Shown one piece after another: positions 17,755-42,584 of a stretch of DNA of 64,000 nucleotides. Position 1 is the first letter of the stretch; every line of letters begins with the position of its first letter. The stretch lies in the IMG/VR virus record IMGVR_UViG_3300043466_001354; one strand, given 5' to 3'. The stretch is from a virus (taxonomy: Duplodnaviria; Heunggongvirae; Uroviricota; Caudoviricetes). A model generated the notes under the pieces. That model made no database searches and had not been told where the DNA came from. It saw nothing but the letters and a program-made list of their open reading frames with translations. Made by a program: the position numbers and the translations under genes.

Positions 17755-17790
17755 TCTGTAGACCTTTCAGTTTGTGTTCCTTACATTATT

Positions 17791-19680: not shown

Positions 19681-19709
19681 AGGAGGTTCCTTTCGTTCCT
19701 TACATTATT

Positions 19710-19738
19710 AGAATACACTGATTCTAAACGAATGTCAA
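19710..19738 (-). promoter_or_regulatory. Early promoter cassette copy (TTGACA-17-TATTCT)
   Basis: Near-identical repeat (19688-19739). Confidence 0.6.
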
Positions 19739-20003: not shown

Positions 20004-20032
20004 AGTCTATACTGATTCTGAACGAATGTCAA
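20004..20032 (-). promoter_or_regulatory. Early promoter cassette, diverged copy (TTGACA-17-TAGACT)
   Basis: Same gattctgaacgaatgtcaacc core. Confidence 0.5.
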
Positions 20033-24568: not shown

Positions 24569-25514
24569 TACTTAAACGCCTCAACAAGTTAATCCAAGAG
24601 TTCTTAAAGGTATTTATGCTATTCCGTGGAAGGTTACATGCGTCCGAATTCGTTATCTTATTAATGAAGTTTTCGTCGATACGCTGGGCATCAAGTATGT
24701 TCTTTACTGCAGAAAAAGAACGGTTCGCATGCTCGTTTCTATCCTCAGTATATTCATACATTAGAGTAGCGTTAGAAGACGTTTCTGGCAGAGCTGCATA
24801 ATTAGGATGGATCACCAATACACCAGAACGTATCGCTTCTATCATCGCGATACAAGACGTTTCCTGCCATATTGAAGGGAAAAGGAAGATATGAGATTCC
24901 TTCAGAGCTTCGAGAACTTCTTCGTTACTCTTTGATCCATGATATGTAATTCGTGGATGAGCTTTGAGTTTTTCGAACAAGTTTTCATATGGCTTATCAC
25001 GTTGTTCCCAACCATAAATCTTAAAGGATGAGTATACATCCAGATGAATGTTGTCGTATTGTTTGCTGAGAGCATCAAAGATCGGATAGACGAGTTCCAA
25101 TCCACGATGCGGAGTCGTGTGATAGATGAAACGAATTTGATCGGTTCTCTTTTGATGCGGGTGATACTCCAACTCAATCGCATTGTGTATTACGCTACAC
25201 TTCGAGTATGGAATCTGATAGATGAGCATGTATTGATCACGCTGCCAATACGAAACGAAAACAAAGTGATCGAACTTTTGCCAACCGCCGTCACGAAGAA
25301 CAGCATTCTCTGGATCAAAAACTAAATCATGGCAGTAGAAAATGTTTTTCACATCTTTGTGCATCTCACGAGGCCTCGAGAAGTGAACTGCAAAATTCTG
25401 TAGAAGTTCCGGCGGAACATTATTAAGCAGCCTCTCTCGCATCATCTCAGTGCCTCCACGAGCATTGCGAGAGAGGTTTGTATCTACAATGTTTCCCTTG
25501 TAAATACAGCTCAT
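24561..25514 (-). CDS. Glycosyltransferase (GT-B fold, GT4-like C-terminal domain)
   Basis: C-terminal IFLFPSIWQETSCIAMIEAIRSGVLVI resembles the GT4 E-x7-E donor-binding region. Confidence 0.5.
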   Translation of the reverse strand: MSCIYKGNIVDTNLSRNARGGTEMMRERLLNNVPPELLQNFAVHFSRPREMHKDVKNIFYCHDLVFDPENAVLRDGGWQKFDHFVFVSYWQRDQYMLIYQIPYSKCSVIHNAIELEYHPHQKRTDQIRFIYHTTPHRGLELVYPIFDALSKQYDNIHLDVYSSFKIYGWEQRDKPYENLFEKLKAHPRITYHGSKSNEEVLEALKESHIFLFPSIWQETSCIAMIEAIRSGVLVIHPNYAALPETSSNATLMYEYTEDRNEHANRSFSAVKNILDAQRIDENFINKITNSDACNLPRNSINTFKNSWINLLRRLSNG

Positions 25515-27713: not shown

Positions 27714-28649
27714 CTACTTATGATATGAAGTGTACCAATCAACGAATGAAGCAACACCTTCTTCGATATTGACTGAAGGTTGATAACCATACTTTACAAG
27801 TTTTGATACGTCAGACTGAGTCTCAAGACAATCGCCTGCTTGGTGTTCGATATACTCAATATCAGCTTTCTTTCCAGTCGCCGTTTCGATTGCTTCTACG
27901 AAACGTTTAAGAGTGACTTGCTGAGTGTTACCTATGTTAAAGATCTCGTTCGAAGGAATACTGTCGTTTTCCATCACTATCTGAACACCTTTCACGATAT
28001 CATCAATGTACGTGAAATCGCGCTTCATGTTTCCATAGTTATACAGCTTTATCTTTTCACGATTGAGAATGTTCTTTGTGAAGTCATAGAGAGCCATGTC
28101 GGGTCTACCCCAAGGTCCATATACTGTGAAGAAACGAAGACCGATGTCGTTCAGGCCAGACATCTTAAACTGGCATTCATTAACAAACTTAGTGTATCCA
28201 TACGGACTTATCTGATGAAGAACCGGTTCGTCTTCTCTCCATGGAAGTTGTTCGATTCCAGCGCAGACGCTAGAAGTAGATGCATAGACGACTTTTTCTA
28301 TGCCGTTTTCTTTGCACGCATCAATAACGTTTTGAGTTCCGTCTATGTTTACCTTATGGTAGATACCAGGGTTCTTCATAGAATATCTTACACCCGCCAT
28401 CGCTGCTAGGTGTACAACAATGTCTGGCTTCGCACTCTTAATAAAGCGAGATAGAGCTTCTTTATGAATGATATCTACTAGGTGTACTGGAGGCAAGCGA
28501 AAATGCTTAACTCTATCCACCTTAAGTGTAGCTGGATAGTAATCACAATAGTTGTCAATACCAATTATCTCGTAACCGCAATCGCGAAGACGAGCGGATA
28601 GTGAAGCTCCAATAAATCCTGCTGCACCAGTTACAAGAACTCTTTTCAT
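27714..28649 (-). CDS. NAD-dependent sugar-nucleotide epimerase/dehydratase (UDP-glucuronate or UDP-glucose 4-epimerase-like SDR)
   Basis: GAAGFIG Rossmann motif, catalytic YGYTK (YxxxK) and extended-SDR length. Confidence 0.8.
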   Translation of the reverse strand: MKRVLVTGAAGFIGASLSARLRDCGYEIIGIDNYCDYYPATLKVDRVKHFRLPPVHLVDIIHKEALSRFIKSAKPDIVVHLAAMAGVRYSMKNPGIYHKVNIDGTQNVIDACKENGIEKVVYASTSSVCAGIEQLPWREDEPVLHQISPYGYTKFVNECQFKMSGLNDIGLRFFTVYGPWGRPDMALYDFTKNILNREKIKLYNYGNMKRDFTYIDDIVKGVQIVMENDSIPSNEIFNIGNTQQVTLKRFVEAIETATGKKADIEYIEHQAGDCLETQSDVSKLVKYGYQPSVNIEEGVASFVDWYTSYHK

Positions 28650-31509: not shown

Positions 31510-32652
31510 TTACTTCATTCCCATCCAAGTTGCGCATTCATCCCACTTGACGTTAGACGACAATTGCTTTTCGATATGATCAAGGATCATCTCGCGACCG
31601 TCACGGCCAGCGAAACGCCCAAACACATAGTTAGGAGCGAATGAGTCGTTGTCCTTGATGGACGGCATCCACTCCAAAGCGTAACGCTTGCGGTCGAGAC
31701 CGCTTGCGACCACGGTGTTCCAGTAGCGATCGTAGATTTCTACGACAGCATGAAGCCGCTCTGCAAAACGAACCTCAAAGTTACGAACACGGTTTGCCTG
31801 AATGACAGGTAGCATCGGCATCACGTCGTCCATTTCCTCGTTGAGGATAAGAGCAACGATGTTACGGTCGAACACGATACGATCCACAGTCTTGTGGATA
31901 CGCACATACCAATCATTCTTGACCTTAACCATATGGCCATCAGCAAAACGAATGATGTCACCCTCACGACCTTCTGCACCGCGCTGACGGCTAATGTAGT
32001 CAGCAAGGTTGCCTTCTACACTACCATAACGAGGAACAGTGGAGAACGGACAAGACTTATCCATTACATACGCACCGGTTGCGTTGTCACGAGTACCAAG
32101 ATACACGAGGTCTGCTTCTTCGTATGCCAACACGATCTGGTTGAACGGGCTTACCCACTCAAAGATCGGAGTCACCGAGTCGTGTACACACTGACGAAGC
32201 CATTCGTTCAACGAAGGGTCCTGAGCAGCAAGCCAGGTCTCAGCCTGCATAGCCACTTCAGTCACGCCCATCTTGGTAGCAAGACGAAGGTAACCATCGA
32301 CCAAGATAGGACGGATCATCGAACCATCGAGCTTTTCCATGATCACGTGATCAAACAAAACACTGAGATCCAACCGATGTGCTTGAGTCTCTTCACGTTC
32401 GTTCACGTTGAAGAACTTGTGAAACGGGCGGCTCATCAGGTTACCATCAGCATCAAAGATAAGACCACGGCATTCACGGCGGATCGCGCCACCAAGGTCA
32501 TCGGGGCCAGTCATATCAAAGGTGTCAGCCATCGCCACCACATAGTTGACGATGGTATACCCTTCACGTTCTGCCACAACGAACTCAGGACGACCTTCGA
32601 TGTGAGGAAGGACGTCTTCGATGGTGCGTATGATAGGAAAGGCGTAGTGCAT
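31510..32652 (-). CDS. rnlA: RNA ligase 1 (T4 RnlA-like)
   Basis: Nucleotidyltransferase motif I EKLDGSMI (KxDG); 380 aa versus 374 aa for T4 Rnl1. Confidence 0.65.
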   Translation of the reverse strand: MHYAFPIIRTIEDVLPHIEGRPEFVVAEREGYTIVNYVVAMADTFDMTGPDDLGGAIRRECRGLIFDADGNLMSRPFHKFFNVNEREETQAHRLDLSVLFDHVIMEKLDGSMIRPILVDGYLRLATKMGVTEVAMQAETWLAAQDPSLNEWLRQCVHDSVTPIFEWVSPFNQIVLAYEEADLVYLGTRDNATGAYVMDKSCPFSTVPRYGSVEGNLADYISRQRGAEGREGDIIRFADGHMVKVKNDWYVRIHKTVDRIVFDRNIVALILNEEMDDVMPMLPVIQANRVRNFEVRFAERLHAVVEIYDRYWNTVVASGLDRKRYALEWMPSIKDNDSFAPNYVFGRFAGRDGREMILDHIEKQLSSNVKWDECATWMGMK

Positions 32653-32954
32653 TAGGTGTTCCTTTTTCGACTCGATAGATACTCTGTCATCTCAAGAGTG
32701 AGTTCACGAATTCGTGGCTTTACCGAAGCGTCATTATCTTGAACGAGTTTCTTCATAAGCTTCTCTCGTTCGCGGCGGAGGTCTCCAAATTTAGAACCAA
32801 TCCAGAGACCATTCGCCACTTCGTATTGTTTTTCGTCAGTCATTTTTAATCTTTGCTTTGCGCCATACACGATACCGATAGACAAACAAACCCAACACGA
32901 TGGCACCATCTGCATAGCTGTAACCATCAGTGACTTCTTCAAAATCTTCGGCAC
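32652..32954 (-). CDS. Hypothetical protein
   Basis: 100-aa ORF. Confidence 0.4.
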   Translation of the reverse strand: MPKILKKSLMVTAMQMVPSCWVCLSIGIVYGAKQRLKMTDEKQYEVANGLWIGSKFGDLRREREKLMKKLVQDNDASVKPRIRELTLEMTEYLSSRKRNT

Positions 32955-33165
32955 GATACCAATGAAAACCGGACCACTTAATCCGAAGGAAGCCTACTCT
33001 TTCAATACTACTTCGGCTTGGGCAGGCACGACCCTGGTTGCAGTCACTGTTACACGAAGAACAAGTCATTCTGCTTTTCCTAGCACAAGATCTTCGATTG
33101 CACCGTACACAACGAGTACGATAAGAAAGACGACGGGGATCATTACAGCGGTCATTAGAAGTCAC
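32836..33165 (-). CDS. Hypothetical Cys-rich protein (start uncertain)
   Basis: Multiple CxxC pairs; overlaps its upstream neighbour extensively. Confidence 0.25.
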   Translation of the reverse strand: MTSNDRCNDPRRLSYRTRCVRCNRRSCARKSRMTCSSCNSDCNQGRACPSRSSIERVGFLRIKWSGFHWYRAEDFEEVTDGYSYADGAIVLGLFVYRYRVWRKAKIKND

Positions 33166-33360
33166 TCCAGTTCATTGCCATACCGACATTCGTTTCGGCG
33201 TTACGCTTAGCAGCTTCGAAGTCCACGAAAGGACCGGCTGAGGTGAAGTTGTCGAGCAGACGACCCTCGGGGGTAAAGACCATGTAACCTTTGAAAGTCT
33301 TATGGATCATAACCGGCTTGATGGAGTTGGTAGCTTCGTTGTGTTCGTTGAAGGTCATCA
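33155..33360 (-). CDS. Hypothetical early protein (ORF-track start trimmed to the first ATG after the promoter)
   Basis: The promoter cassette at 33369-33425 lies inside the longer track ORF; ATGATG start at 33360. Confidence 0.45.
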
Positions 33361-33391
33361 TGGTCAGTTTCCTTTCGTTCCTTACATTATT

Positions 33392-33420
33392 AGAATACAC
33401 TGATTCTAAACGAATGTAAA
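33392..33420 (-). promoter_or_regulatory. Early promoter cassette (TTTACA-17-TATTCT) with an upstream GGAAAGTGCACT extension
   Basis: About 68 bp that is 97% identical to the copy at 35779-35847. Confidence 0.6.
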
Positions 33421-33446
33421 TAGGAAAGTGCACTGACCACGATTTT

Positions 33447-33758
33447 TTAGGAAATATTTTTCCAATTGCGAACGTATTCGACCTTCTTCTCACGAGTCCA
33501 ATCTTTAAGATAGTCGTTGTCAGCGTCGAACTTCTCGAGCATCTGTTCTTCGGTGAGAATCTCCGAGTCGATGATAGTCTCGCCAACGTGCTTCTGAGAA
33601 AACTCTACTACCTCGTCACAGGTAACACAGTCTTCAGCCCATTCGATCTCACGTCCTTCGACAGGAACTTCAACGTTCAATTCCTGCAGTTCATCTACAG
33701 GAATACAATACCGCATACGGTAAGACGAGATAGCAGTTACGATTACATATTTGGTCAT
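33447..33758 (-). CDS. Hypothetical protein
   Basis: 103-aa acidic ORF. Confidence 0.45.
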   Translation of the reverse strand: MTKYVIVTAISSYRMRYCIPVDELQELNVEVPVEGREIEWAEDCVTCDEVVEFSQKHVGETIIDSEILTEEQMLEKFDADNDYLKDWTREKKVEYVRNWKNIS

Positions 33759-34120
33759 TTAATTAAATTACTCCAAGTTTTAAGTTTATTTCGCTTTACA
33801 TCTACTCTATCATCTAATTCATCATTAGTCAAGACGCCGTGTTCTACCATTAGTTTAATCATACAAAGCACATCACCTGCTTCTTCAACTAGTTGATACC
33901 TATATTTGTCTTTAGACATATCTTCCATGTTATCATACTTACGCATAATTTTCATGCAGACTTGAGTTAATTCGCCCGATTCTTCTGCTGTAATTGCCAT
34001 TAACTGTTGGAAGGCATTAATTGGAGATTTTAGTTCTTCGTTACTTACCATGTCTTCTTTCCCGCAATCTCGCCCAGCGTGGTGCGGGCCATATCTCTTG
34101 CATACGTGTCTTCTCCCCAA
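33755..34120 (-). CDS. mazG: MazG-like nucleotide pyrophosphohydrolase
   Basis: All-alpha NTP-PPase motifs EESGEL ... EEAGDVL; the true start is probably an internal Met. Confidence 0.55.
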   Translation of the reverse strand: MGRRHVCKRYGPHHAGRDCGKEDMVSNEELKSPINAFQQLMAITAEESGELTQVCMKIMRKYDNMEDMSKDKYRYQLVEEAGDVLCMIKLMVEHGVLTNDELDDRVDVKRNKLKTWSNLIK

Positions 34121-34314
34121 ACATAGATTGCATTAAGACCCCCGACGGCCTTCGCCAGATTGTCCTCTAGTTCTTCGATGCGGTCGGCGGCTTCGAGAGC
34201 ATCTTCATCTTTCCACTCAATCCGCTTGTACCCGTCAATAGACTCAAACTCTTGCCGCTTCCGCAGCCGCTTCACCAGTTCTTCGTCAGTCATTTTACTT
34301 CCTTTGCAATACAA
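34045..34314 (-). CDS. Hypothetical protein
   Basis: 89-aa ORF overlapping the mazG 5' region. Confidence 0.3.
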   Translation of the reverse strand: MYCKGSKMTDEELVKRLRKRQEFESIDGYKRIEWKDEDALEAADRIEELEDNLAKAVGGLNAIYVWGEDTYARDMARTTLGEIAGKKTW

Positions 34315-34617
34315 TATCCTTCCAAGGCGCGCACCGGCTCAAGCTGTGTAATAGCAGATTTGCAAGAATCATAATTAGGGAATTCCAGTGTTGTAATAGC
34401 AGCTCCGTTATAAGAGCTGATTAGAATAAGAATATATGCGCCTGCTGTGTCAATCATTTGCTCACCTTTGTAACTGCCTTACGCAGCTCTCCACCTTCAA
34501 AGTTATCCATTGCCAGATAGTGTTTCAGTTTAGCATTATCTGGATCCACTCGATGCAACTCCTGTGCAAGAGTTTCGATTAGATCGTAGTCCAGTTGAGT
34601 TTTGATATGTTTACCCA

Positions 34618-35064
34618 TTAGAAGTCCTCCTCACCTTGATAGACGTTAAACACAAAGATACCAGCATCACGCCACATGCGAACCACGCGAGGACGATCGT
34701 CAAACACCATGTCTGGCTTCTTACCAAAGTCAGAGATGATTTGATCCAGCATTTCACGCTTTACAATATCATCACCACGGAAGTCATCTGCGGGACGCAT
34801 GTAGAGCTTGTCCCACGTATGCAGGTTGTTCTTAGTCAACCATGCGACTGTGGCTTCACGACTGCGCTCGTTGCGACCGCTCGCTAGGACAATGGTGTTC
34901 CTAGCAGCACTTAGAGAGTGAAAGGCTTCCGCAACAAATCGGTTCACTTTATCATTCGGAATGCCAGCATCAAATGCAGCCCAGTTCTTAGGCTTGCTAC
35001 GAACATAGTCCAAACGATGCTCGATGTTAGCGAGTGTTCCGTCCAAGTCAAATACGATTAGCAT
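34618..35064 (-). CDS. Polynucleotide 3'-phosphatase (HAD domain of T4 Pnk/PseT-like)
   Basis: IVFDLDGTLA (DxDGT), VLASGR, DDR, VVRMWR parallel the T4 Pnk phosphatase domain. Confidence 0.7.
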   Translation of the reverse strand: MLIVFDLDGTLANIEHRLDYVRSKPKNWAAFDAGIPNDKVNRFVAEAFHSLSAARNTIVLASGRNERSREATVAWLTKNNLHTWDKLYMRPADDFRGDDIVKREMLDQIISDFGKKPDMVFDDRPRVVRMWRDAGIFVFNVYQGEEDF

Positions 35065-35413
35065 TTATAATCCTCAGATAGTTGTTCAGCAAGCCTTCGA
35101 TGTTTGCTTTGCCGATAGGGTTTTGTGAGTGGACGTAGAAGTCAAAGTTGTCTGGAAGCGGGTAGCGCTTATCATTCATATCCCAATACATAATACGTTT
35201 AGCGACATCGTGACCGGTGGGTTCATCTTGACCAAGATCGTGATCAAATGAAATATATGATGGCATTCCTCTCGTCCTAACAGCTATAACAACTTCATAA
35301 AAATTGCGGCAGATCACCCACTCTTCGTTACGATACTTCTCGCGAACCTGCCAAGGTGCCCAAGTGGCATCCTCGAGGTTACGTTCGTCATCAAGAAACA
35401 GGTTCCAAGTCAT
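35048..35413 (-). CDS. Hypothetical protein
   Basis: 121-aa ORF. Confidence 0.4.
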   Translation of the reverse strand: MTWNLFLDDERNLEDATWAPWQVREKYRNEEWVICRNFYEVVIAVRTRGMPSYISFDHDLGQDEPTGHDVAKRIMYWDMNDKRYPLPDNFDFYVHSQNPIGKANIEGLLNNYLRIINANRI

Positions 35414-35414
35414 C

Positions 35415-35576
35415 TTAGATCACCTTTGCGATTTCAATAAAAACATAGTACTCTTTGTCGAGACCTTCAACGATCTTTTCGACCTCTTCTTTTGTGTCTG
35501 CTCTAAACATGTCGTAAGACTCGAGTCGATCGCCGTAACGATCGAACTCTTCGTAGTGTGCGTAGACCTTGTACAT
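35415..35576 (-). CDS. Hypothetical small protein (start moved to an internal Met)
   Basis: The track ORF 35415..35708 overlaps 35587..35772; only the MYKVYAHY... segment is non-overlapping. Confidence 0.3.
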   Translation of the reverse strand: MYKVYAHYEEFDRYGDRLESYDMFRADTKEEVEKIVEGLDKEYYVFIEIAKVI

Positions 35577-35586
35577 CTGATTCTCC

Positions 35587-35772
35587 TTAGAAGCGATATT
35601 CTGCAGGTGCATCAACTGCGACTTCACGAACAACGAACTGCTCATAAGATGGCAGATCACGTTCAGCATCAACCAGATACTGTTGCGAAGCAGCTTCTGC
35701 GAGTTCACGAGACGAGTATACGCCTAGAAGGGTTTCACCTTCGTAGTCAGCAGCAAGAGTGAGTACAAACAT
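35587..35772 (-). CDS. Hypothetical early protein
   Basis: 61-aa ORF directly downstream of a promoter cassette. Confidence 0.45.
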   Translation of the reverse strand: MFVLTLAADYEGETLLGVYSSRELAEAASQQYLVDAERDLPSYEQFVVREVAVDAPAEYRF

Positions 35773-35801
35773 CGGATGTTCCTTTCGTTCCTTACATTAT
35801 T

Positions 35802-35830
35802 AGAATATACTGATTCTAAATGAATGTAAA
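35802..35830 (-). promoter_or_regulatory. Early promoter cassette (TTTACA-17-TATTCT)
   Basis: Near-identical to the 33369-33437 copy. Confidence 0.6.
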
Positions 35831-35853
35831 TAGGAAAGTGCACTCTTTTTCAT

Positions 35854-36978
35854 TTAATCTTCTCTTTTTCCAAAGCCCCAATCGATTACGACTGGAAACC
35901 GAGGAACGCCATCCGGAGTCGGAGTGAAGTAGCGAAGAGTAACCCAATCGGGTTTCTTGCCTGCATCCCAGAGAGCACGTAGAGTGTCCATGTCACCACG
36001 AACACCAGCTTGGAAGTCACGAGTATCATTCAGTTTCAAAACAAAATGTTTAGTGCATCCCTGCCAGTTTCCAATACCAGACATCATTTCCTTGACTTCG
36101 AACTCGTCGGTCAAGAACTCTTTACGCTTCAGCAAGTTTTTCGTACGCTTGTTCTCGTAACGACCATCGATGCGGATCATCTGACCTTCGTATCCATGTT
36201 CGAGATAACCCTCATACAGAGTATCGATCGACTGCGGATCGTTGACCTGCATGGTCGGAACCATCTTTACGAATTCGTTCGAAGCTTCGTAGCGCAACAG
36301 CTCACGCTTACGGAACGGCAGATCCGGACTATCAGTCACATAGACGTCATAGACGTGATACTGCACGAGTTCCTTCGATTTCATGATGTCTTCGGGCTTC
36401 GGTTTTGTCTTACGAACCATCGAGGTGATGGTGTTGAAGTCATCCTTCAGCTCGTGATTATAGAGTTCGCCGTCAAGAATTAAGTTTGGATTCTTTTCAA
36501 AATAAGACTGCAGCGACTCCCAGACGTGAGGAACAGCGACGATTTCTTTTCCTGCGCGAGTCCATAGACCATCCTTACGAGCGATGCAACGAATGCCATC
36601 GAGCTTCGGTTGACTATAGATGTATCCCTTTGACCAGTTAACCGGAACCTCTTCATACTTCTCAGCCAACATCGGCTTGAACTTATCAAAGGTATGGATC
36701 ATATCGATGTTAGAGAAATAGCCAGTATCTTCTTTCTTCTGCATTTCAGATACCATCTCAGCGTTTGCTTGCGCTTCGAGAGACGTCTCGTTTGAGCGTC
36801 CGACGTTCTTTTGTTCAACGAAGGTCCATTCAGAAGTAATCTGTTTTCCGTCCTGAAGCCCTGAGATCGTCCGTAGACCCCATCGAGTTCCATCAGTGCC
36901 GGTCTCTGCTCGCCAGACTCGCGTCTTACCTTTTGTATCTACCTTATACAGGTTCTCAGTGCTTGTTTTAACTTCCAT
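35854..36978 (-). CDS. ATP-dependent DNA ligase
   Basis: Motif I PKLDGIRC (KxDGxR); size fits the adenylation plus OB domains. Confidence 0.7.
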   Translation of the reverse strand: MEVKTSTENLYKVDTKGKTRVWRAETGTDGTRWGLRTISGLQDGKQITSEWTFVEQKNVGRSNETSLEAQANAEMVSEMQKKEDTGYFSNIDMIHTFDKFKPMLAEKYEEVPVNWSKGYIYSQPKLDGIRCIARKDGLWTRAGKEIVAVPHVWESLQSYFEKNPNLILDGELYNHELKDDFNTITSMVRKTKPKPEDIMKSKELVQYHVYDVYVTDSPDLPFRKRELLRYEASNEFVKMVPTMQVNDPQSIDTLYEGYLEHGYEGQMIRIDGRYENKRTKNLLKRKEFLTDEFEVKEMMSGIGNWQGCTKHFVLKLNDTRDFQAGVRGDMDTLRALWDAGKKPDWVTLRYFTPTPDGVPRFPVVIDWGFGKRED

Positions 36979-37009
36979 AACGATTCTCCGAATTGGTTCA
37001 TACTTGTTC

Positions 37010-37038
37010 TGTATAAACTAGTTTTATGAGATTGTAAA
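37010..37038 (-). promoter_or_regulatory. Early promoter TTTACA-17-TATACA upstream of the DNA ligase
   Basis: Lies immediately downstream of the 37040-37068 terminator; GGAGAA RBS follows. Confidence 0.5.
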
Positions 37039-37039
37039 C

Positions 37040-37068
37040 AAAAAAGAGCGCCGAAGCGCTCTTTTTCT
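37040..37068. terminator. Bidirectional rho-independent terminator AAAAAGAGCGC-CGAA-GCGCTCTTTTT
   Basis: Perfect 7-bp GC stem with a GNRA-like loop, flanked by A-run and T-run. Confidence 0.8.
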
Positions 37069-37081
37069 TCATATTTTTATC

Positions 37082-38038
37082 TTACTGGGCTGGCTTAGCA
37101 ACAACGTCCATGAATGGAACAGTCGAGTCTGGGATCATAGTGGTAGGAAGAGCACCGTTCCACTTTTCAGCTTGAACTAGAGCAATCAAACCTGCGTTAT
37201 CCTTCAGAGCTTCTGCTTTCGCCTTAATCGCGCTTGCTTCTGCTTCACCTTGAATACGAGTTGCTTCTGCGGCCGCAACTGCTTGAGCTAGTTGAGCGTC
37301 GGCTTGTGCCTGTGCCTGAGTCACGACGATCTCAGCCTGAACCTTTTCACGTTCTGCGTTCTGCCGAACCTTTTGCACTTCGACTTCTGCAAGCATACGA
37401 GCTTCAATCGATTGTTCATAAGCATCAGAGAAGTCGATGTTCTCAATTTGAACCGACTCAACGATGATAGGACCAATTACAGCTTTCTGGATTGCCATCT
37501 GAACTTCTGCAGCAAGACGTTCACGTTCCTGAATAGCGGTTGCTGCGTTGAACTTACCAAAGACGTTCTTGACTTCTTCAAGAACCTGACGATCAAGCAA
37601 GCGAGAGATCACGCCAGCTTCGCCACCATATTCACGATAGATCGTCTCAACTTGATCTGCAGGGAAGCGATAGTTAACAGACAGGTTTAGACCCGCAGTC
37701 TGTTGATCACGAGAGTAAGCAAGGATGTTCTCGTACAACTGAGCCTGTGATTGAACAGAAATATCAACCACCTTTTCGATCAAAGGGATTTTAAATCCAA
37801 GACCTGGTTCTGCAGTACCAACCACGGCACCGTTACGAAGAGTTACACCACGGTAACCTTCATCAACAGTATACCACGATCCGCCAATTACAGTCAGTGC
37901 AGTAAGACCGACGACAGTAGCGATAGTTCCACCAACGATAGCATTCATTTTCATTTTCCTTTTACGTTCATTATATTGATTTAGTGCTGCTTCATACTCA
38001 GCTTTAGTGTTAAAGTCATAGCGATCAGGTTTAAACAT
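37082..38038 (-). CDS. SPFH/band-7 (prohibitin/HflC-like) membrane protein
   Basis: N-terminal TM, an SPFH-domain-like region, then an A/Q/E-rich coiled coil. Confidence 0.75.
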   Translation of the reverse strand: MFKPDRYDFNTKAEYEAALNQYNERKRKMKMNAIVGGTIATVVGLTALTVIGGSWYTVDEGYRGVTLRNGAVVGTAEPGLGFKIPLIEKVVDISVQSQAQLYENILAYSRDQQTAGLNLSVNYRFPADQVETIYREYGGEAGVISRLLDRQVLEEVKNVFGKFNAATAIQERERLAAEVQMAIQKAVIGPIIVESVQIENIDFSDAYEQSIEARMLAEVEVQKVRQNAEREKVQAEIVVTQAQAQADAQLAQAVAAAEATRIQGEAEASAIKAKAEALKDNAGLIALVQAEKWNGALPTTMIPDSTVPFMDVVAKPAQ

Positions 38039-38216
38039 CAGGTTTATCTTTCGTTGTTACAGTGTTATCACGGACGTATTCATTACCATCTTCATCTTTG
38101 GTATACGTGAAGCGTTCAGGCTGGCGTTTAAACGTGATATTTGACACCACCCAATACGCACCAACACCAATCACAGCCGCAACGACAATGAAGCCAATCA
38201 TAGTATAAAAAGCCAT
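38031..38216 (-). CDS. Small membrane protein coupled to the SPFH gene
   Basis: Single N-terminal TM (IGFIVVAAVIGVGAYWVV); overlaps the SPFH start. Confidence 0.4.
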   Translation of the reverse strand: MAFYTMIGFIVVAAVIGVGAYWVVSNITFKRQPERFTYTKDEDGNEYVRDNTVTTKDKPDV

Positions 38217-38256
38217 CTATTCCTCCAATTTCCAATTAATAACTAAGTACGCAATA

Positions 38257-38781
38257 TCATGCATTTTTCTTCTCCATAATTACATTGCAAAAGATGTCGA
38301 CAATGGTGATCTTATCGAAGCCTTCATCGAGTTCAGGTTCAACATAGGAATCAGCCATAGCTTCAATGATGTGATGAGGGATAGTCTTCCCAGGACGAGA
38401 ATCAAGGCGACGATCGAGTTCAGCCCACTCTTCAGCAGTCTGAGGAACACGAACGCACCAACATTCCTTGTGATAGTTCTTAGGGAACTTCGACAAGATG
38501 CTCTTACGCTTCTTCGAAGACATATTAGTCTGATCCCAGTACACATCAATCCCTGCGCTGATAGCAATTGCAAGCACATTATTCATATGCTTAGTTGCTT
38601 CGTTGATGTGATCACCGAACACGTCGTCGTAAGACTTACCAGCTTCTTTGGCTCGAGCTTCGATATATGCATCAGTGCTATACACAAAGACGTCTCCACC
38701 AAACTCCGGATCGTCAACAAACGACAATCGAGTCGACTTACCTGAACCAGGCAGACCTACGAGAACTTCAACCTTAGGCAT
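38257..38781 (-). CDS. Polynucleotide 5'-kinase (P-loop kinase domain of T4 Pnk-like, stand-alone)
   Basis: VGLPGSGKST P-loop and WDQTN...R..W parallel the T4 Pnk kinase domain; start set at MPKVEV with a GAGG RBS. Confidence 0.55.
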   Translation of the reverse strand: MPKVEVLVGLPGSGKSTRLSFVDDPEFGGDVFVYSTDAYIEARAKEAGKSYDDVFGDHINEATKHMNNVLAIAISAGIDVYWDQTNMSSKKRKSILSKFPKNYHKECWCVRVPQTAEEWAELDRRLDSRPGKTIPHHIIEAMADSYVEPELDEGFDKITIVDIFCNVIMEKKNA

Positions 38782-39052
38782 CTTCGCCAACCTCTGCATC
38801 TTCAAAAATCTTGTTAAAGGTAATCTCGTTGTATTCGCCACGGCCGGTCATGCCGAGTTCATAAAGTCGGGCCATCATCTTTGCATCGTGTTCAGTCTTG
38901 ATATACATCGATGTGTCGAGATCGCCGTGCAACATACCTACTTCAGTTCTAAAGAAGTCAACTACATACATAGTTTTGGTATAGGAACCGTCAAAGTTGC
39001 CGTAGCAGACGTCGACTTCAACTTCTTCGGGGGTCACGATTGCGATAGCCAT
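38774..39052 (-). CDS. Hypothetical protein
   Basis: 92-aa ORF downstream of a promoter-like element. Confidence 0.4.
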   Translation of the reverse strand: MAIAIVTPEEVEVDVCYGNFDGSYTKTMYVVDFFRTEVGMLHGDLDTSMYIKTEHDAKMMARLYELGMTGRGEYNEITFNKIFEDAEVGEDA

Positions 39053-39115: not shown

Positions 39116-39874
39116 TTAAACTTTTTTTCGAACAGACTCATTATATTTTACGGCAGCTTCTAGCGTCTGTAGCTCGACGCCTGAGTTCTTTGCCGTCTGC
39201 AGAATCGCCGCGGTATCCTTTGGAAAACACGCTCCGCCCCAGCCTCTATCGTTCTCATTTACAAAAGTATGGCTCTCACCGATACGAGAGTCTAACGTGA
39301 CACCAGAGCGAACCGACTCGTAATCCAATCCGAGCGTTTCACAGAAATCGTAGATCTCGTTGAAGAAGCTACACTTTGCCGCAAGAAACGAGTTTCGAAA
39401 ATACTTGATGGCAATTGCGTGCTTTGGCTTACATACAGTTATGCTGATGTCTGGATACACCGTCGTGTAAAAATCTAACCAGTATTGAACGTTACCGCCA
39501 GCCAAGAACGCATGAGTGAGGTTCTTAAGGTCGTCGTCTGCGCTTGCAGCTCGAAGAAATTCTGGACTAAATGTGATGGAGTGTTCAGGAAAGTTTCTTT
39601 CGAGAGTTTCCCATCCCTCCATCGATATCGTGCTCTTAATGAGAATTGGAGCTTCTTTTGGAATGTCTTGAATTACATTATAGATTATGCTCATATCACA
39701 GCTTCCATCTTCAGATGATGGAGTCGAAACACAGACGATAGCACCACTAATGTTTTCTATGTCTTTGATACGAATATTGCTGAAGGCCGGATCTACGATA
39801 GACATTTCGTGATGAGGGCTAAACGCTTTATAGTGAGCTTTACCAACGAAGCCGTATCCTAATAGTACAATCAT
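39116..39874 (-). CDS. ugd: UDP-glucose/GDP-mannose 6-dehydrogenase family protein (short; lacks the C-terminal domain)
   Basis: N-terminal GYGFVG NAD motif and catalytic GWGGACFPKD; only 252 aa versus about 390-450. Confidence 0.55.
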   Translation of the reverse strand: MIVLLGYGFVGKAHYKAFSPHHEMSIVDPAFSNIRIKDIENISGAIVCVSTPSSEDGSCDMSIIYNVIQDIPKEAPILIKSTISMEGWETLERNFPEHSITFSPEFLRAASADDDLKNLTHAFLAGGNVQYWLDFYTTVYPDISITVCKPKHAIAIKYFRNSFLAAKCSFFNEIYDFCETLGLDYESVRSGVTLDSRIGESHTFVNENDRGWGGACFPKDTAAILQTAKNSGVELQTLEAAVKYNESVRKKV

Positions 39875-39884
39875 GGTTTATCCT

Positions 39885-40892
39885 CTAGTTAGTTTTACAG
39901 TTTATAAGATTGTCTCGAAAAATGTTCCAAGCGTTTCCCCAATCCCATTTCATGCTGAATTTGTATACTGATTCTCTATCGAGGTCAAGAGATTTTTTAA
40001 TAGCGATAGTGATATCCTCATCCATATAACCAGTTACATCTTGATCTATTACGTCTAATGGTCCTTGCACAGGATAAGCAGCGACCGGAGTACCGCATGC
40101 CATTGCCTCAATCATCACCAATCCAAATGTATCCCAACGACTAGGAAACACAAAAACATCAGCCTGTTGATAATAATGCGCGAGTTCAGCACCACGTTTG
40201 GCACCTACAAAGTTCACGTAAGGATATTGCTTCTTGTATGTTTCTAACATAGGACCATCGCCTACGATAGTTTTAACTGCATTGGGGTAGTTTATCTCAA
40301 GAAAAGCTTCCAGATTTTTTTCTTTGCTTACTCGACTCACGCAAACGAGGTTAATGTGCGAGCATGGTTCTTTCACTGCCGGTTTGAATATATCCCTATC
40401 AACTCCTCGAGTCCAATGAATAACATTGTTATTAAATCCATGCGCATGAAGTTCATCGACCATTGATTTTGTCGTAGTGAGTACCTTATTGCTATTCTTA
40501 TGGAACCAGCGCACAACTGCCCAAGTAATTCCTTCAGGAATTCCTAGTAACGTCCTTACACCTTCAGGAAACTTAGTATGGTAAGCAGTATTGTACTTAA
40601 TCCCACGTATTGCAAGATACCTTCTAGCAGACATACCCATAGGACCTTCTGTGGCGATGTGTATATAATCCGGATCAATCTTCTTGATCTCTTTCCCAAC
40701 AACCCAAGGAGGTGCCCAGGCAAGCTTAACTTCATTGTACTTTGGGCAATCAATATGGCCGTACATCCCGGGATGAATATAATCAACAGTATAACCGTCG
40801 CGAATCGCATACGTCTCAATATTTTTGTAGGTCGTAACCACACCATTAATCTGATTCGGTAAGTTGTCTGTAACTATTAAGATCTTCGGCAT
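39885..40892 (-). CDS. GT4-family glycosyltransferase (Agt/SqdX-like glycolipid synthase candidate)
   Basis: GT-B architecture with a GT4 C-terminal E-x7-E region (FPSRWDTFGLVMIEAMACGTPV). Confidence 0.65.
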   Translation of the reverse strand: MPKILIVTDNLPNQINGVVTTYKNIETYAIRDGYTVDYIHPGMYGHIDCPKYNEVKLAWAPPWVVGKEIKKIDPDYIHIATEGPMGMSARRYLAIRGIKYNTAYHTKFPEGVRTLLGIPEGITWAVVRWFHKNSNKVLTTTKSMVDELHAHGFNNNVIHWTRGVDRDIFKPAVKEPCSHINLVCVSRVSKEKNLEAFLEINYPNAVKTIVGDGPMLETYKKQYPYVNFVGAKRGAELAHYYQQADVFVFPSRWDTFGLVMIEAMACGTPVAAYPVQGPLDVIDQDVTGYMDEDITIAIKKSLDLDRESVYKFSMKWDWGNAWNIFRDNLINCKTN

Positions 40893-41616
40893 AATGCACT
40901 ATCTCCCATCTTCCATCAAAGTGTTCTACCAGAGCGGTGGCACTCTCGACCCAGTCGCCATCGTTCATGTATATAACACCATTTATTTCTTTTATTTCAG
41001 CATGATGAATGTGACCACAAATTATTCCGTCATATCCATGTTGCTTACAATAGGCAGCTAGATGTTCTTCGTAACGATTGATAAAGTTTAACGCGTGTTT
41101 AGTATTCTGTTTTAGATATTTACTTAAACTCCAATAGTCCATACCAAACAAACTTCTTACTCGATTAAACTGAACATTGGCATATATCATAGCGTCATAC
41201 AAAGTATCTCCAATGTGCATCAACCATTTTTTATCATGCATCAATACGTCAAAGAAGTCACCATGAATAACCAGATAACGTTTGCCGTCTAAACCTATGT
41301 AGTCTTGTCTGTTAGTTACTTTAATATTACCGAAGCTGATATCAAAGTTTAAAAACTTACGGCCTGCTTCATCGTGATTACCTAATATGTATTCTACTCT
41401 AGTGCCACGCTTAGCTGCCGTGAGTATTCTGCGTATCACATTGGCATGACTCTGTGGAAAGTACCAACGTTTCTTTAAGCGCCAACCATCCAGCATATCA
41501 CCAACTAGGAATAGGTTTTCGCTTGTGTTGTTTTTTAAGAAAACACAGAGGGCGTCTGCTTGACACCCTCTGGTTCCTAAATGCACATCACTTATGAAGA
41601 TGCTTTTATATTTCAT
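40846..41616 (-). CDS. Calcineurin-like metallophosphoesterase (PlcP/LpxH-like)
   Basis: Metallophosphoesterase motifs DVHLG, GDMLDGW, GNHD, HGD, GHIHH; 256 aa; overlaps the GT4 start by 47 nt. Confidence 0.65.
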   Translation of the reverse strand: MKYKSIFISDVHLGTRGCQADALCVFLKNNTSENLFLVGDMLDGWRLKKRWYFPQSHANVIRRILTAAKRGTRVEYILGNHDEAGRKFLNFDISFGNIKVTNRQDYIGLDGKRYLVIHGDFFDVLMHDKKWLMHIGDTLYDAMIYANVQFNRVRSLFGMDYWSLSKYLKQNTKHALNFINRYEEHLAAYCKQHGYDGIICGHIHHAEIKEINGVIYMNDGDWVESATALVEHFDGRWEIVHYAEDLNSYRQLTESD

Positions 41617-41618
41617 TC

Positions 41619-42584
41619 TTATTTAAGAGCAGAAACTTCAGCCTGAGTAGCTGCAAGTTCTGGATCTGGAACCAATCCATACTGTGCAAGAGCGCCATCA
41701 GGACCTGCCATCTCATCACTCACGAAGAACTCGATGTATTCCTTCAGACCAGGAATGACGCTGAGGTGAGCGTTCTTCACGTAGAAGTAAAGTGGACGGC
41801 TGATTGGATAGTCACCGCTTGAGATGGTTTCTACGCTTGGTGCCACGCCACTTACCGTGGCAACTTCTAGTTTATCAGTGTTGTTCTGATAGAAGCTAAG
41901 ACCAAACACACCTAGCGATGTTTTATTAGCATCAAGACGAGCAAGTGTTTCTGTGTAGTCGCCATCGATGTCAACTGCTGCACCGTCAGTTCTTACTTTC
42001 ACACAAGCTTTCTTTTGATCGTCATCGAGTTTCTCAACACCGAGAGCTGCTTTACAACCTTCTTCCATCACCTTTACATCGAACACTTCACGAGTGCCGT
42101 GTTTGGTACCTGGAATGTATGCAAGGATTGCTACTTCTGGAAGAGTCGAGTCGACTTCACTCCAGAGTTTTGCAGTGCTCGACTCGTGTAGAGCGCTATA
42201 GAGTTGTTCGACTGTTAGATTATCGATATTAAGTTGATCGATGTTCGATGCAAACACGATACCGTCATAACCAATACGAACCTCAGTCACTTCACCAATT
42301 GCTTCTTCACACTTGGCTCTTTCTTCATCCTTCATCTTTGAAGAACTATTTGCGATGTCAACAGTGTTTTCACCAACACCTTCGCAGAGCTTCTTACGGC
42401 CTGCACCCGAACCACCACCTTCAACTACTGGCGACGGAAAATCAAAATTTTCACCAAATGCCTCTGCGACAATGGTTGCATATGGTAGTACTGTAGACGA
42501 TCCTGTTACTTGAACGTTATCTCTTGCAAACGCAGTCGTGGACGCCAAAGCAATAATTGCCGCCGCTGATAGTAAAGCTTTCAT
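41619..42584 (-). CDS. pstS: Phosphate ABC transporter substrate-binding protein PstS
   Basis: Signal peptide plus TGSSTVLP, GGGSGAG, FGLSFY, YPISRPLYFYV PstS hallmarks. Confidence 0.9.
   Translation of the reverse strand: MKALLSAAAIIALASTTAFARDNVQVTGSSTVLPYATIVAEAFGENFDFPSPVVEGGGSGAGRKKLCEGVGENTVDIANSSSKMKDEERAKCEEAIGEVTEVRIGYDGIVFASNIDQLNIDNLTVEQLYSALHESSTAKLWSEVDSTLPEVAILAYIPGTKHGTREVFDVKVMEEGCKAALGVEKLDDDQKKACVKVRTDGAAVDIDGDYTETLARLDANKTSLGVFGLSFYQNNTDKLEVATVSGVAPSVETISSGDYPISRPLYFYVKNAHLSVIPGLKEYIEFFVSDEMAGPDGALAQYGLVPDPELAATQAEVSALK

Follow-up and report, generated by a model that had tools for sequence, protein, structure and literature searches.

A putative RNA-repair gene set with separate Pnkp-type phosphatase and P-loop kinase genes in an uncultivated T4-like myovirus

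Results and discussion

Organization of the locus

The window, that is, the whole 64-kb stretch of DNA analysed, represents part of a ~195-kb genome, and the remainder could encode additional healing enzymes or a Pnkp in fused form. The presence of gp20, gp23, gp17, and gp18 identifies its source as an uncultivated T4-like myovirus. The minus strand carries an Rnl1-type ligase, a Pnkp-type HAD phosphatase, and a P-loop kinase, each as its own gene, along with the following neighbours.

31510..32652, minus strand: T4 Rnl1 (RnlA)-type ATP-dependent RNA ligase, 380 aa (Pfam RNA_lig_T4_1, 4.3e-25; phrog_562, 3e-72)
33377..33420, minus strand: promoter and leader cassette, TTTACA-N17-TATTCT followed by AATAATGTAAGGAAC...AAAGGAA-ATG, ahead of four small ORFs and then Rnl1
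33755..34120, minus strand: MazG-like NTP pyrophosphohydrolase, at most 121 aa (phrog_4856, 4.8e-18)
34618..35064, minus strand: predicted stand-alone Pnkp-type HAD (DxDxT) polynucleotide 3'-phosphatase, 148 aa (Pfam HAD_PNKP, PF25109, 2.3e-29; phrog_415/505, ~1e-34)
35048..35413, minus strand: cREC (cyclic-phosphate-processing receiver-like) protein, 121 aa (Pfam cREC_REC, 1.8e-21)
35787..35830, minus strand: second cassette copy, ahead of a 61-aa ORF, a 53-aa ORF, cREC, and HAD
35854-36978, minus strand: ATP-dependent DNA ligase (interleaved)
37041-37066, minus strand: terminator hairpin (interleaved)
37082-38038, minus strand: SPFH/Band_7 protein (interleaved)
38031-38216, minus strand: small membrane partner of the SPFH protein (interleaved)
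38257..38781, minus strand: stand-alone P-loop kinase of the PNK/PSTK (AAA_33) clade, 174 aa (AAA_33, 7.7e-12; phrog_505, T4 Pnk, 8e-9)
38774..39052, minus strand: 92-aa ORF, overlapping the kinase gene at ATGCCTAA
39079..39107, minus strand: promoter-like TTGACA-N17-TATATC, read from the sequence, upstream of the 92-aa ORF and the kinase

The initial annotation had recognized the ligase, HAD, and kinase ORFs, and the motifs quoted for them are present at these minus-strand positions; the cREC and MazG-like genes had been overlooked. Its description of the HAD and kinase genes as lying 3.2 kb apart, with the genes for DNA ligase and the SPFH protein between them, is accurate (3193 nt). The repair genes are thus scattered over 7.3 kb, with unrelated genes in between, and are divided among three transcription units. 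Two of these, the cREC-HAD and Rnl1 operons, are headed by copies of one ~50-nt cassette, of which there are four near-identical copies in the window against a chance expectation of none. Rnl1 is the last, about the fifth, cistron of the operon beginning at the 33420 cassette. The suggestion that HAD and kinase each lie near an early promoter of their own stands in part: HAD is the fourth cistron behind its cassette, and a generic sigma-70 scan showed no enrichment (15 sites versus 13.3 expected), but the cassette does lie upstream, and the TTGACA-N17-TATATC site, missed by the consensus scan because its −10 hexamer ends in C, precedes the 92-aa ORF and the kinase.

The 92-aa ORF is translationally coupled to the kinase. 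It has no match in Pfam or PHROG, and in relatives it is found directly upstream of the kinase, Rnl1, or the cREC operon; it is possibly an accessory or cassette leader gene. An accessory role is also possible for the MazG-like protein, which scores under the cutoff against Pfam MazG (0.003) and has homologues close to Rnl1 in three loci (L037-L039); published phage neighbourhoods list MazG together with Rnl, cREC, and kinase (PMC9503650). Behind the terminator, the DNA ligase gene is provided with a promoter-like site of its own, and we do not consider the DNA ligase, SPFH/Band_7, and small membrane partner genes (35854..38216) part of the RNA-repair set.

RNA ligase, 3'-phosphatase, and cREC

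Profile searches against T4 Pnk and Rnl1, proposed in the initial annotation as a check, returned matches for the ligase (6e-30, spanning T4 Rnl1 residues 52-368), HAD (8e-7), and the kinase (1.4e-4). The ligase contains the motif VIMEKLDGSMI, and its nucleotidyltransferase motifs are kept, with K107/D109/G110, E165, E230/G231, and K243/K245 invariant among 22 homologues. The ligase also has an all-helical, Rnl1-type C-terminal domain homologous to that of T4 Rnl1, the presence of which the initial annotation had raised as a question; a profile of the C-domain alone matches T4 Rnl1 257-364 (3.7e-4). Foldseek likewise ranks T4 Rnl1 first (2e-12), albeit with a model of poor quality, and at 150 bits the protein falls below the NCBIfam equivalog cutoff of 242 bits.

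The HAD protein displays the motifs FDLDGT, ASGRN, and FDDRPRVVRMWR. Apart from the T4 Pnk phosphatase, its only solved-structure match is Pnkp1 (1.4e-9). Residues D6, D8, S62, K102, and D122/D123 align with D165, D167, S211, K258, and D277/D278 of T4 Pnkp, the roles of which have been described (PMC3592404), so that every catalytic residue of the T4 Pnkp phosphatase is kept. By sequence, HAD is a bona fide PNKP-type phosphatase (PF25109), as opposed to the generic nucleotidase that the initial annotation had allowed for.

The final 17 nt of the cREC gene extend into the start of HAD, and the two genes are translationally coupled. The encoded protein is predicted to be a 2',3'-cyclic phosphodiesterase: D8, D9, D57-H58-D59, H95-S96, and N98 never vary among 12 homologues, and K102 hardly does. 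Of 11 related viral loci, 7 show the same adjacency, cREC followed by HAD. Such an activity is not strictly required, however, because T4 Pnkp itself removes the cyclic phosphate with no separate diesterase (PMC3592404).

Family and probable substrate of the kinase

The kinase, which carries the motifs GLPGSGKST and WDQTN, had been assigned a GTG start at 38841 (194 aa). This needs correction: translation almost certainly starts at ATG 38781, since the resulting 174 aa match the lengths of the homologues (161-192 aa among the 120 listed). At E ≤ 1e-3, the solved structures retrieved with the kinase profile are tRNA or polynucleotide kinases only, namely, PSTK (4e-6), RazKIN (2.5e-5), Pnkp1 (1e-4), and T4 Pnk (1.4e-4); mammalian PNKP is also matched, whereas guanylate kinase reaches just 0.4. 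A dNMP kinase identity, which would have undermined the initial annotation, was rejected given this preference for tRNA/RNA-end kinases and the retention of T4 Pnk residues. The top-ranking PSTK phosphorylates Ser-tRNA, not a 5'-OH, which counts against reading the protein as a 5'-OH kinase. RazKIN, by comparison, is a free-standing fungal protein proven to be an RNA 5'-OH kinase (PMC11571804).

Five of the six T4 Pnk kinase residues are kept. The invariant residues K15, S16, D37, D83, and R129 correspond in the alignment to T4 K15, S16, D35, D85, and R126, whereas T4 R38 is replaced by a near-invariant Ile40. Within the PNK clade, the protein belongs to a subfamily distinct from T4 Pnk: phrog_6931/2071 outscore phrog_505, the family of T4 Pnk, and R38 is lacking. 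Its AF2 model (pLDDT 91) superimposes on the kinase of Clostridium thermocellum Pnkp with a TM-score of 0.65 and on T4 Pnk with 0.60. Nevertheless, the fold leaves the substrate undefined, because zeta/PezT toxins rank top in Foldseek (2e-7) and gluconate kinase also ranks high (3e-5).

These structural matches, together with a Pfam Zeta_toxin score above cutoff (29.1 versus 22.3 bits) and the loss of R38, leave room for a small-molecule kinase, acting on dNMPs or other nucleotides to furnish the phage with DNA precursors or, like zeta toxins, on UDP-sugars, in which case it would have no connection with HAD and the ligase, which by themselves would form a partial repair set. We regard this as unlikely. 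The profile places PSTK, RazKIN, Pnkp1, T4 Pnk, and PNKP well ahead of guanylate kinase; the family never departs from the general-base Asp and lid Arg that typify PNKs; and the window holds no second such kinase, making this the sole 5'-kinase candidate alongside a ligase that requires a 5'-phosphate. We infer that the protein is an RNA 5'-OH kinase.

Linkage and fusion of the repair genes in other phages

Genomic neighbourhoods bear on the same question. In a set of 62 non-redundant viral loci, a kinase homologue has Rnl1 no more than 2.5 kb away in 16 and HAD nearby in 10; one or the other is found within 2.5 kb in 19, on the same strand throughout. RNA_lig_T4_1 is the commonest Pfam family among upstream neighbours of kinase homologues, and HAD_PNKP the fourth. 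The linkage extends across nearly all clades of the kinase family tree, and some family members are fused to PNKP-type HADs: in the fusion protein P0286, a kinase of the window type (31% identity, 7e-22) is linked to a HAD of the window type (44% identity). Both observations argue against a small-molecule kinase, in favour of which it can be said that a separate clade of homologues adjoins dCMP deaminase genes (six such neighbours) and that the clade of the window kinase itself (at least 52% identity) never directly adjoins Rnl1 or HAD, the closest Rnl1 being ~9 kb away. RNA-end healing remains the preferred role.

Rnl1 and kinase are neighbours in DSS3P8, Cr30, and Bacillus phages, and two loci (L092/L093) contain a compact cluster, cREC-HAD-kinase...orf92-Rnl1. 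The clustering exceeds chance, with linkage of these families recurring across many phage contigs that are unrelated; an RNA-repair function has been predicted for such neighbourhoods (PMC7824862, PMC9503650). Extremely improbable, accordingly, is the notion that the genes are independent cargo of a hyperplastic early region, with Rnl1, for instance, serving mainly as a tail-fibre attachment factor like T4 gp63. The 7.3-kb spread with interposed unrelated genes, the shuffled gene order among relatives, and the label under which PHROG lists the ligase ('RNA ligase and tail fiber protein attachment catalyst') would suit it, but the linkage recurs in distant phages, is contiguous in several and becomes fusion in some, and the catalytic residues are all preserved.

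The position of the DNA ligase gene between HAD and kinase raises the alternative of a DNA-repair module, in which the two enzymes would heal 3'-phosphate and 5'-OH nicks for this ligase. T4 Pnk acts on DNA ends too. So does MciKIN, which also complemented a yeast trl1 kinase defect (PMC11571804). Of the 62 loci, however, 1 has a DNA ligase gene at most 2.5 kb from the kinase homologue (6 at most 10 kb away), far below the figures for Rnl1 and HAD, and its promoter-like site differs from the cassette common to cREC-HAD and Rnl1. Moreover, cREC implies cyclic phosphates, which form only on RNA. We therefore deem the DNA-repair module highly unlikely.

Proposed RNA-repair pathway

The most plausible reading of the ligase, HAD, and kinase is an RNA heal-and-seal set in which the two Pnkp activities would reside on separate polypeptides. 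The initial annotation had already advanced this interpretation, and the family of HAD, the structure matches of the kinase profile, and the Rnl1-type C-terminal domain of the ligase support it. Anticodon nucleases and other metal-independent ribotoxins yield breaks that bear a 2',3'-cyclic phosphate on one side and a 5'-OH on the other. We estimate a probability of roughly three in four that the window encodes a multi-gene pathway mending such breaks. First, cREC and/or HAD itself would open the cyclic phosphate to a phosphomonoester, which HAD would then strip via an aspartyl-phosphate intermediate, leaving a 3'-OH. The kinase would move a phosphate from NTP onto the 5'-OH, and the ligase would adenylylate the 5'-phosphate and close the break, its C-terminal domain being homologous to the T4 Rnl1 tRNA-specificity domain. 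A tRNA target and a host nuclease are presumed, and the tRNA-targeting host defence suggested in the initial annotation is likewise hypothetical.

Comparison with known systems

Among the closest parallels, T4 Pnkp (pseT) with Rnl1 (gene 63) involves the chemistry and enzyme families proposed here, including the ligase C-terminal domain. However, T4 Pnkp is a single 301-aa protein, whereas here the kinase and phosphatase genes are separate, the kinase belongs to the distinct subfamily without R38, cREC is coupled to HAD, and the ligase is under the equivalog cutoff. In Capnocytophaga gingivalis Pnkp1-Rnl-Hen1 (PMC4411300; PDB 4xrp), the source of the best solved-structure match of HAD, kinase and HAD are likewise fused, the ligase is of another type, and a Hen1 methyltransferase, not seen here, is present. 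The Mucorales split tRNA-splicing apparatus offers a precedent, with ligase and ~170-aa KIN both free-standing, but that system comes from eukaryotes, is specific for GTP, and employs a 2H-type CPDase together with a Trl1-type ligase needing a 2'-phosphate (PMC11571804), and the likeness of KIN to the phage kinase is confined to fold and motifs.

Many environmental phages share the unfused layout, which has already been described. The neighbourhoods of Iyer, Burroughs, Aravind et al. combine cREC, T4-like ligase, P-loop kinase, MazG-like protein, and PNK-type HAD, with the same predicted division of labour, cREC opening the cyclic phosphate and HAD taking off the monoester (PMC7824862, PMC9503650). 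Sirtuin, KptA, 2H, and RlaP, known from those neighbourhoods, were not found in the examined part of the window, and here, in place of a single tight operon, the genes are scattered, with those for DNA ligase and SPFH in between. Cultured phages with the split arrangement have also been annotated: in Ochrobactrum phage vB_OspM_OC, p110-p107 are a contiguous HAD-cREC-Rnl1-kinase array, as opposed to three transcription units here. The homologues in this phage and in Roseobacter phage DSS3P8 (gp099, gp105, gp106) already bear the names polynucleotide kinase and RNA ligase and share 33-40% (HAD), 41% (cREC), 38-39% (Rnl1), and 29-44% (kinase) identity with the window proteins.

The initial annotation had raised the possibility that the split preserves an ancestral, unfused form of Pnk. 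Among the 150 cluster representatives nearest to HAD, stand-alone proteins outnumber fusions 128 to 19, and HAD-kinase fusions occur with either domain order, which fits the fusions being derived forms. Where HAD and kinase genes are adjacent, however, HAD precedes the kinase, an order that runs counter to that of the domains in T4 Pnkp.

A probable RNA-repair gene set with separate kinase and phosphatase genes

The window comes from a T4-like myovirus, with genes for the gp20 portal, gp23 capsid protein, gp17 terminase, gp18 sheath and T4 RNase H, accompanied by genes for PhoH, PstS, ribonucleotide reductase, ThyA and DHFR. Database searches suggest that it is without a close cultured relative: when the 8.5-kb region was compared by megablast with 50,697 phage records, no match was returned, and the best match of the major capsid protein, at 66%, is to Sinorhizobium phages phiM12/phiN3. 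Related metagenomic contigs are ~195 kb long. There are no tRNA genes in the window. Scans with Pfam, PHROG and NCBIfam profiles revealed a run of genes between 31.5 and 38.9 kb, all on the minus strand.

Principal genes of the locus
31510-32652, minus strand: T4 RNA-ligase-1 family protein (Rnl1), 380 aa; RNA_lig_T4_1, 4e-25; phrog_562, 3e-72
33755-34120, minus strand: MazG-like gene, between HAD and Rnl1
34618-35064, minus strand: HAD_PNKP (PF25109) phosphatase (HAD), 148 aa; 2e-29
35048-35413, minus strand: cyclic-phosphate-processing receiver-like protein (cREC; PF20274), 121 aa; 1.8e-21
35854-36978, minus strand: ATP-dependent DNA ligase
37082-38038, minus strand: SPFH/Band_7 protein
38257-38841 as first called, minus strand: AAA_33 P-loop kinase; AAA_33, 8e-12; phrog_505 (T4 Pnk family), 8e-9

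The kinase gene lies 3.2 kb from HAD and 5.6 kb from Rnl1, and no informative Pfam or PHROG match was obtained for ten small ORFs of the locus. The initial annotation had described an Rnl1-like ligase together with a stand-alone phosphatase and a stand-alone kinase; all three genes and the motifs quoted for them are indeed present, but the cREC gene had been overlooked. The core of that reading, an RNA-repair set with a split Pnk, is supported by family matches, catalytic residues, genomic linkage and the existence of fusion proteins. Such a system is already known and described, and the locus is nothing new in kind; the useful additions are the coupled cREC gene, a corrected kinase start, a promoter cassette common to two operons, and what linkage and fusions say about the kinase.

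A stand-alone Pnkp-type phosphatase

HAD matches PF25109 with 102.8 bits (cutoff 27.6) over profile positions 4-142 of 143. Its residues D6, D8, T10, S62, K102 and D122-D123 make up the catalytic set (DxDxT, motif II Ser, motif III Lys and motif IV DD), and D6, D8, S62, K102 and D122/D123 align with D165, D167, S211, K258 and D277/D278 of T4 Pnkp, where D165 is the nucleophile, D167 is the acid-base and the other residues likewise have assigned roles in the phosphatase (PMC3592404). Its only relatives of solved structure are Pnkp1 of the Pnkp1-Rnl-Hen1 complex (1.4e-9) and the T4 Pnk phosphatase domain (8e-7). HAD is by these sequence criteria a genuine Pnkp-type phosphatase rather than a generic nucleotidase. 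As had been proposed, it is encoded separately, in a 148-aa ORF without the fused 5′-kinase domain of T4 Pnkp.

Thousands of HAD homologues exist: an exhaustive search recovered 9019 cluster representatives at E ≤ 1e-3, of which 3480 remained at the stricter E ≤ 1e-10. The 150 nearest comprise 128 stand-alone proteins, 9 fusions with the kinase in front of HAD, as in T4, and 10 with the reverse order, so that the split form is the norm among the relatives of this phosphatase. Fusions in both domain orders sit among its close relatives (proteins P0266-P0386), which suggests that fusion occurred more than once; the C-terminal kinases of the HAD-then-kinase proteins have SSD..R and DATN motifs and are of another kinase subfamily. 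When the two genes are neighbours, HAD precedes the kinase, the opposite of the T4 Pnkp order. The earlier suggestion that the unfused arrangement is ancestral would be compatible with repeated fusion, which is no proof of it.

A cREC gene translationally coupled to the phosphatase

The cREC and HAD genes overlap by 17 nt, at the stop of the former and the start codon of the latter. The protein covers the full PF20274 profile (77 bits, cutoff 27) and has a receiver-like acidic site in which D8-D9, D57 and S96 are invariant and K102 is nearly so. Among 11 related viral loci, 7 likewise have cREC directly followed by HAD, and two contigs carry a compact cluster of cREC-HAD-kinase, three small ORFs, orf92 (a 92-aa ORF discussed below) and then Rnl1. 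Comparative genomics has led to the prediction that cREC opens 2′,3′-cyclic phosphates ahead of HAD phosphatases, and published phage neighbourhoods combine a T4-like ligase, cREC, a nucleotide kinase and MazG (PMC7824862, PMC9503650). For the family, hydrolysis of 2′,3′-cyclic phosphate or of cyclic ADP-ribose phosphate is predicted; cREC is stated to be experimentally uncharacterised (PMC9503650). An ORF labelled ‘YahA’ upstream of the phiN3 kinase homologue was considered as a further candidate and rejected, as it is not a cREC.

An Rnl1-type ligase with a probable Rnl1-type C-terminal domain

The ligase aligns with residues 52-368 of T4 Rnl1 (E 6e-30) and matches Pfam RNA_lig_T4_1 with 89.3 bits (cutoff 28.3). 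Its K107-L-D-G, E230-G and K243-V-K245 correspond to KEDG, EGY and KIK of T4 Rnl1 (motifs I, IV and V), all three motifs being invariant in 22 homologues. With 150 bits against a cutoff of 242, it falls below the NCBIfam equivalog TIGR02308 and is therefore a divergent family member that does not qualify as a T4 orthologue on this criterion.

The domain specific to Rnl1, all-helical and comprising T4 residues ~255-374, has been implicated in tRNA specificity. A profile of 14 diverse homologues, restricted to their last 113-147 residues, had a single significant PDB match, to T4 Rnl1 257-364 (E 3.7e-4); the isolated domain of the window protein, searched as a single sequence with phmmer, found no match in PDB, and Pfam T4_Rnl1_C remained sub-threshold (21.9 bits, cutoff 27). 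The AlphaFold2 model of the ligase is poor (pLDDT 60, at which TM-scores are not meaningful), yet it is all-helical over 247-376, and Foldseek placed T4 Rnl1 first (2e-12). The question of whether the ligase carries an Rnl1-type C-terminal domain thus has a positive, though not a strong, answer from the C-domain profile. The protein is a member of the T4 Rnl1 family, with a predicted role in sealing breaks in tRNA anticodon loops.

A polynucleotide kinase-like protein supported by its genomic context

The weakest link of the proposed repair set is the kinase. Its ORF is present with the motifs originally quoted, but the start at 38841 is almost certainly wrong: the homologues among 120 matches listed have lengths of 161-192 aa, and their alignment begins at an internal ATG at 38781, so the gene is 38257-38781 and encodes 174 aa. 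Searched as a single sequence against PDB, the protein gave an uninformative best E of 0.11. A profile of 25 sequences ranked archaeal PSTK first (4e-6), followed by RazKIN (2.5e-5), Pnkp1 (1e-4), the T4 Pnk kinase domain (1.4e-4) and mammalian PNKP (1e-3), against 0.4 for guanylate kinase. RazKIN is a biochemically proven stand-alone RNA 5′-OH kinase, and the general-base Asp that activates the 5′-OH (T4 D35, MciKIN D36) is required in a stand-alone kinase (PMC11571804). In the window protein, the P-loop G9-LPGSGKST17 and W82-D83-Q-T-N are invariant across the 25 sequences, as are K15, S16, D37, D83 and R129, which align with T4 Pnk K15, S16, D35, D85 and R126. T4 R38, the Arg contacting the phosphate of the terminal nucleotide, is replaced by Ile40, nearly invariant across the family. 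A search of the window for another Pnk-like kinase found none.

The confident AlphaFold2 model (pLDDT 91) superposes about equally well on the kinase of C. thermocellum Pnkp, with a TM-score of 0.65, and on T4 Pnk, with 0.60, and it also superposes on zeta toxins and gluconate kinase; Foldseek lists zeta toxins first (2e-7, with ~0.4 of the larger toxin covered), and polynucleotide kinases are mixed with gluconate kinase. Pfam Zeta_toxin also matches (29.1 bits, cutoff 22.3), and no antitoxin-like partner of the kinase was identified. The fold gives no verdict between a polynucleotide and a small molecule as substrate. The sequence profile favours a tRNA/polynucleotide kinase-like protein, for which activity on 5′-OH RNA is predicted.

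The strongest evidence on the kinase is its genomic context. Homologues abut RNA ligase genes in cultured phages (DSS3P8, Cr30, Bacillus phages and Rhizobium phage RHph_I1_18), and Ochrobactrum phage vB_OspM_OC carries a contiguous HAD-cREC-Rnl1-kinase array, all four members of which are homologous to window proteins. In a set of 62 non-redundant viral contigs, the distance between the kinase and an Rnl1 homologue is at most 0.5 kb in 8, at most 2.5 kb in 16 and at most 10 kb in 21; within 2.5 kb, HAD is found at 10 of the 62 loci, Rnl1 or HAD at 19 and DNA ligase at one. A Pfam census of two ORFs on each side of the kinase homologues gave RNA_lig_T4_1 (9), HAD_PNKP (5), an Rnl2-type ligase (3) and Thg1 (2) as some of the most frequent neighbours, as well as dCMP deaminase (6) and HNH (5). 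In a neighbour-joining tree of the kinase, linkage to Rnl1/HAD is scattered over almost all clades, and the homologues beside dCMP-deaminase genes form a separate cluster. The clade of the window kinase itself has kept Rnl1 only at ~9 kb; in the sister clade HAD, kinase and Rnl1 are contiguous. Furthermore, window-type kinase and window-type HAD are fused in the metagenomic proteins P0286 and P0379, the former with 31% identity to the kinase (E 7e-22) and 44% to HAD.

The dCMP-deaminase neighbours of one clade bear on the alternative of a small-molecule kinase, since part of the family may act in nucleotide metabolism; the context of the kinase relatives is mostly that of RNA repair, and a smaller number of them have dCMP deaminase genes next to them. 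The homologues with dCMP-deaminase-like neighbours in place of RNA-repair genes are those of viral loci L044, L047, L051, L054, L059 and L028.

Thg1-like genes adjoin the ligase/kinase region in relatives (locus L006, 12972-14887, and Rhizobium phage RHph_I1_18), as do NadM-like and NAMPT genes of NAD salvage in relatives; none of the three was found in the scanned part of the window. Thg1 is the tRNA-His guanylyltransferase, a 3′-5′ polymerase. In Sinorhizobium phage phiN3 (L098, KR052482.1, 203639-204229), a kinase homologue with 47% identity is labelled ‘putative polyA polymerase’, which is likely a misannotation; the product was considered as a possible fusion, and this was rejected, as it is a stand-alone 196-aa P-loop kinase. 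Nearby are genes for an SPFH protein and a metallophosphoesterase. Metallophosphoesterase genes flank the kinase in both vB_OspM_OC and phiN3, and the window metallophosphoesterase (40846-41616) was a candidate for an additional enzyme of end healing; it is LpxH-like and not homologous to those of the two phages, and was rejected.

Proposed course of repair

From the families and catalytic residues of the locus, we infer a pathway in which a host ribotoxin would cut RNA to leave a 2′,3′-cyclic phosphate and a 5′-OH. The cyclic phosphate would be opened by cREC and/or HAD, and the resulting monoester removed by HAD via an Asp6-phosphate intermediate; the kinase would phosphorylate the 5′-OH, and the Rnl1 homologue, whose C-terminal domain would favour tRNA, would close the break. 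Since T4 Pnkp removes cyclic ends without help (PMC3592404), a need for cREC is not a given. A more specific proposal is that 3′-end healing is itself divided, the coupled cREC opening the cyclic phosphate and HAD removing only the monoester, which with the free kinase would amount to a three-way split of Pnkp, and orf92 might be a further component; we hold this tentatively, at roughly one chance in three. If it is true, the locus and its abundant marine relatives would form an experimentally accessible system in which cREC could be defined biochemically for the first time; the conserved, translationally coupled cREC-HAD pair is in any case a place to probe the predicted activity.

The locus matters mainly as context. 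Repair of tRNA/RNA breaks of the T4 type is widespread in uncultivated T4-like phages, usually in the form of separate, shuffled genes rather than a fused Pnkp, and selection by RNA-cleaving defences in the hosts of these phages is implied. The proteins are also naturally occurring one-domain forms of enzymes that serve as laboratory reagents.

A shared promoter cassette and the surrounding early region

Each of the separated Pnk genes had been thought to lie near its own early promoter. A generic sigma-70 scan lends this no support, with 15 sites against 13.3 expected, but a promoter-like cassette heads the cREC-HAD and Rnl1 operons, and another site precedes the kinase. The cassette, a promoter with a 5′-leader of ~50 nt together, occurs in the window in four near-identical copies, none being expected by chance.

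Copies of the promoter and leader cassette
17776-17819, minus strand
19695-19738, minus strand
33377-33420, minus strand
35787-35830, minus strand

Its sequence, TT[TG]ACATTC[GA]TTTAGAATCAGT[GA]TATTCTAATAATGTAAGGAAC followed by a Shine-Dalgarno sequence, comprises TT[TG]ACA, a conserved 17-nt spacer, TATTCT, AATAATGTAAGGAAC and the Shine-Dalgarno. The copy at 35830-35787 heads an operon of a 61-aa ORF, a 53-aa ORF, cREC and HAD, and that at 33420-33377 heads four small ORFs and then Rnl1. The genes orf92 and kinase lie downstream of a different site, TTGACA-N17-TATATC, and DNA ligase is preceded by a terminator hairpin and by a TTTACA-N17-TATACA site of its own. The hairpin located 3′ of the SPFH gene is a strong bidirectional terminator (37041-37066, AAAAAGAGCGC-TTCG-GCGCTCTTTTT). 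Mobile early-promoter cassettes have been proposed to drive gene shuffling in T4-type phages; the window cassette resembles these, and the gene order around it differs between relatives.

The kinase ATG overlaps the stop codon of the upstream orf92 (ATGCCTAA). This ORF (38774-39052, minus strand) is conserved without a family match; directly upstream of the kinase in the window and its close relatives, it immediately precedes Rnl1 or the cREC-HAD operon in other relatives, as seen across L003-L008, L040/L041, L087/L088 and L092/L093. Its product could be another component of repair, or the ORF could be a leader gene of the cassette. In the window (38031-38216) and in relatives, a small membrane-protein ORF always lies upstream of the SPFH gene.

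Other genes of the region, all on the minus strand, are of separate interest. An ORF at 43527-44051 matches Tad3, the Pfam family of type I Thoeris inhibitors, at 6.7e-39 and is a predicted anti-defence gene in the same early region as the repair genes; a Tad2-like gene adjoins a kinase homologue in another contig. PstS-like phosphate-binding protein (41619-42584) and PhoH (21022-21771) are typical auxiliary gene products of marine T4-like phages. A sugar/lipid-related set (39116-41616, 27714-28649 and 24561-25514) includes a short (252-aa) UDP-glucose-dehydrogenase-like ORF, an NAD-dependent epimerase, a GT4 glycosyltransferase with a weak ‘GT4-conflict’ match, a second glycosyltransferase of the GT1 family and the LpxH-like metallophosphoesterase, and may serve the cell surface or DNA modification. 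The early region also encodes a DUF932 protein (16798-17754), a Methyltransf_24 methyltransferase (15293-15928) and a PD-(D/E)XK nuclease (20029-20700).
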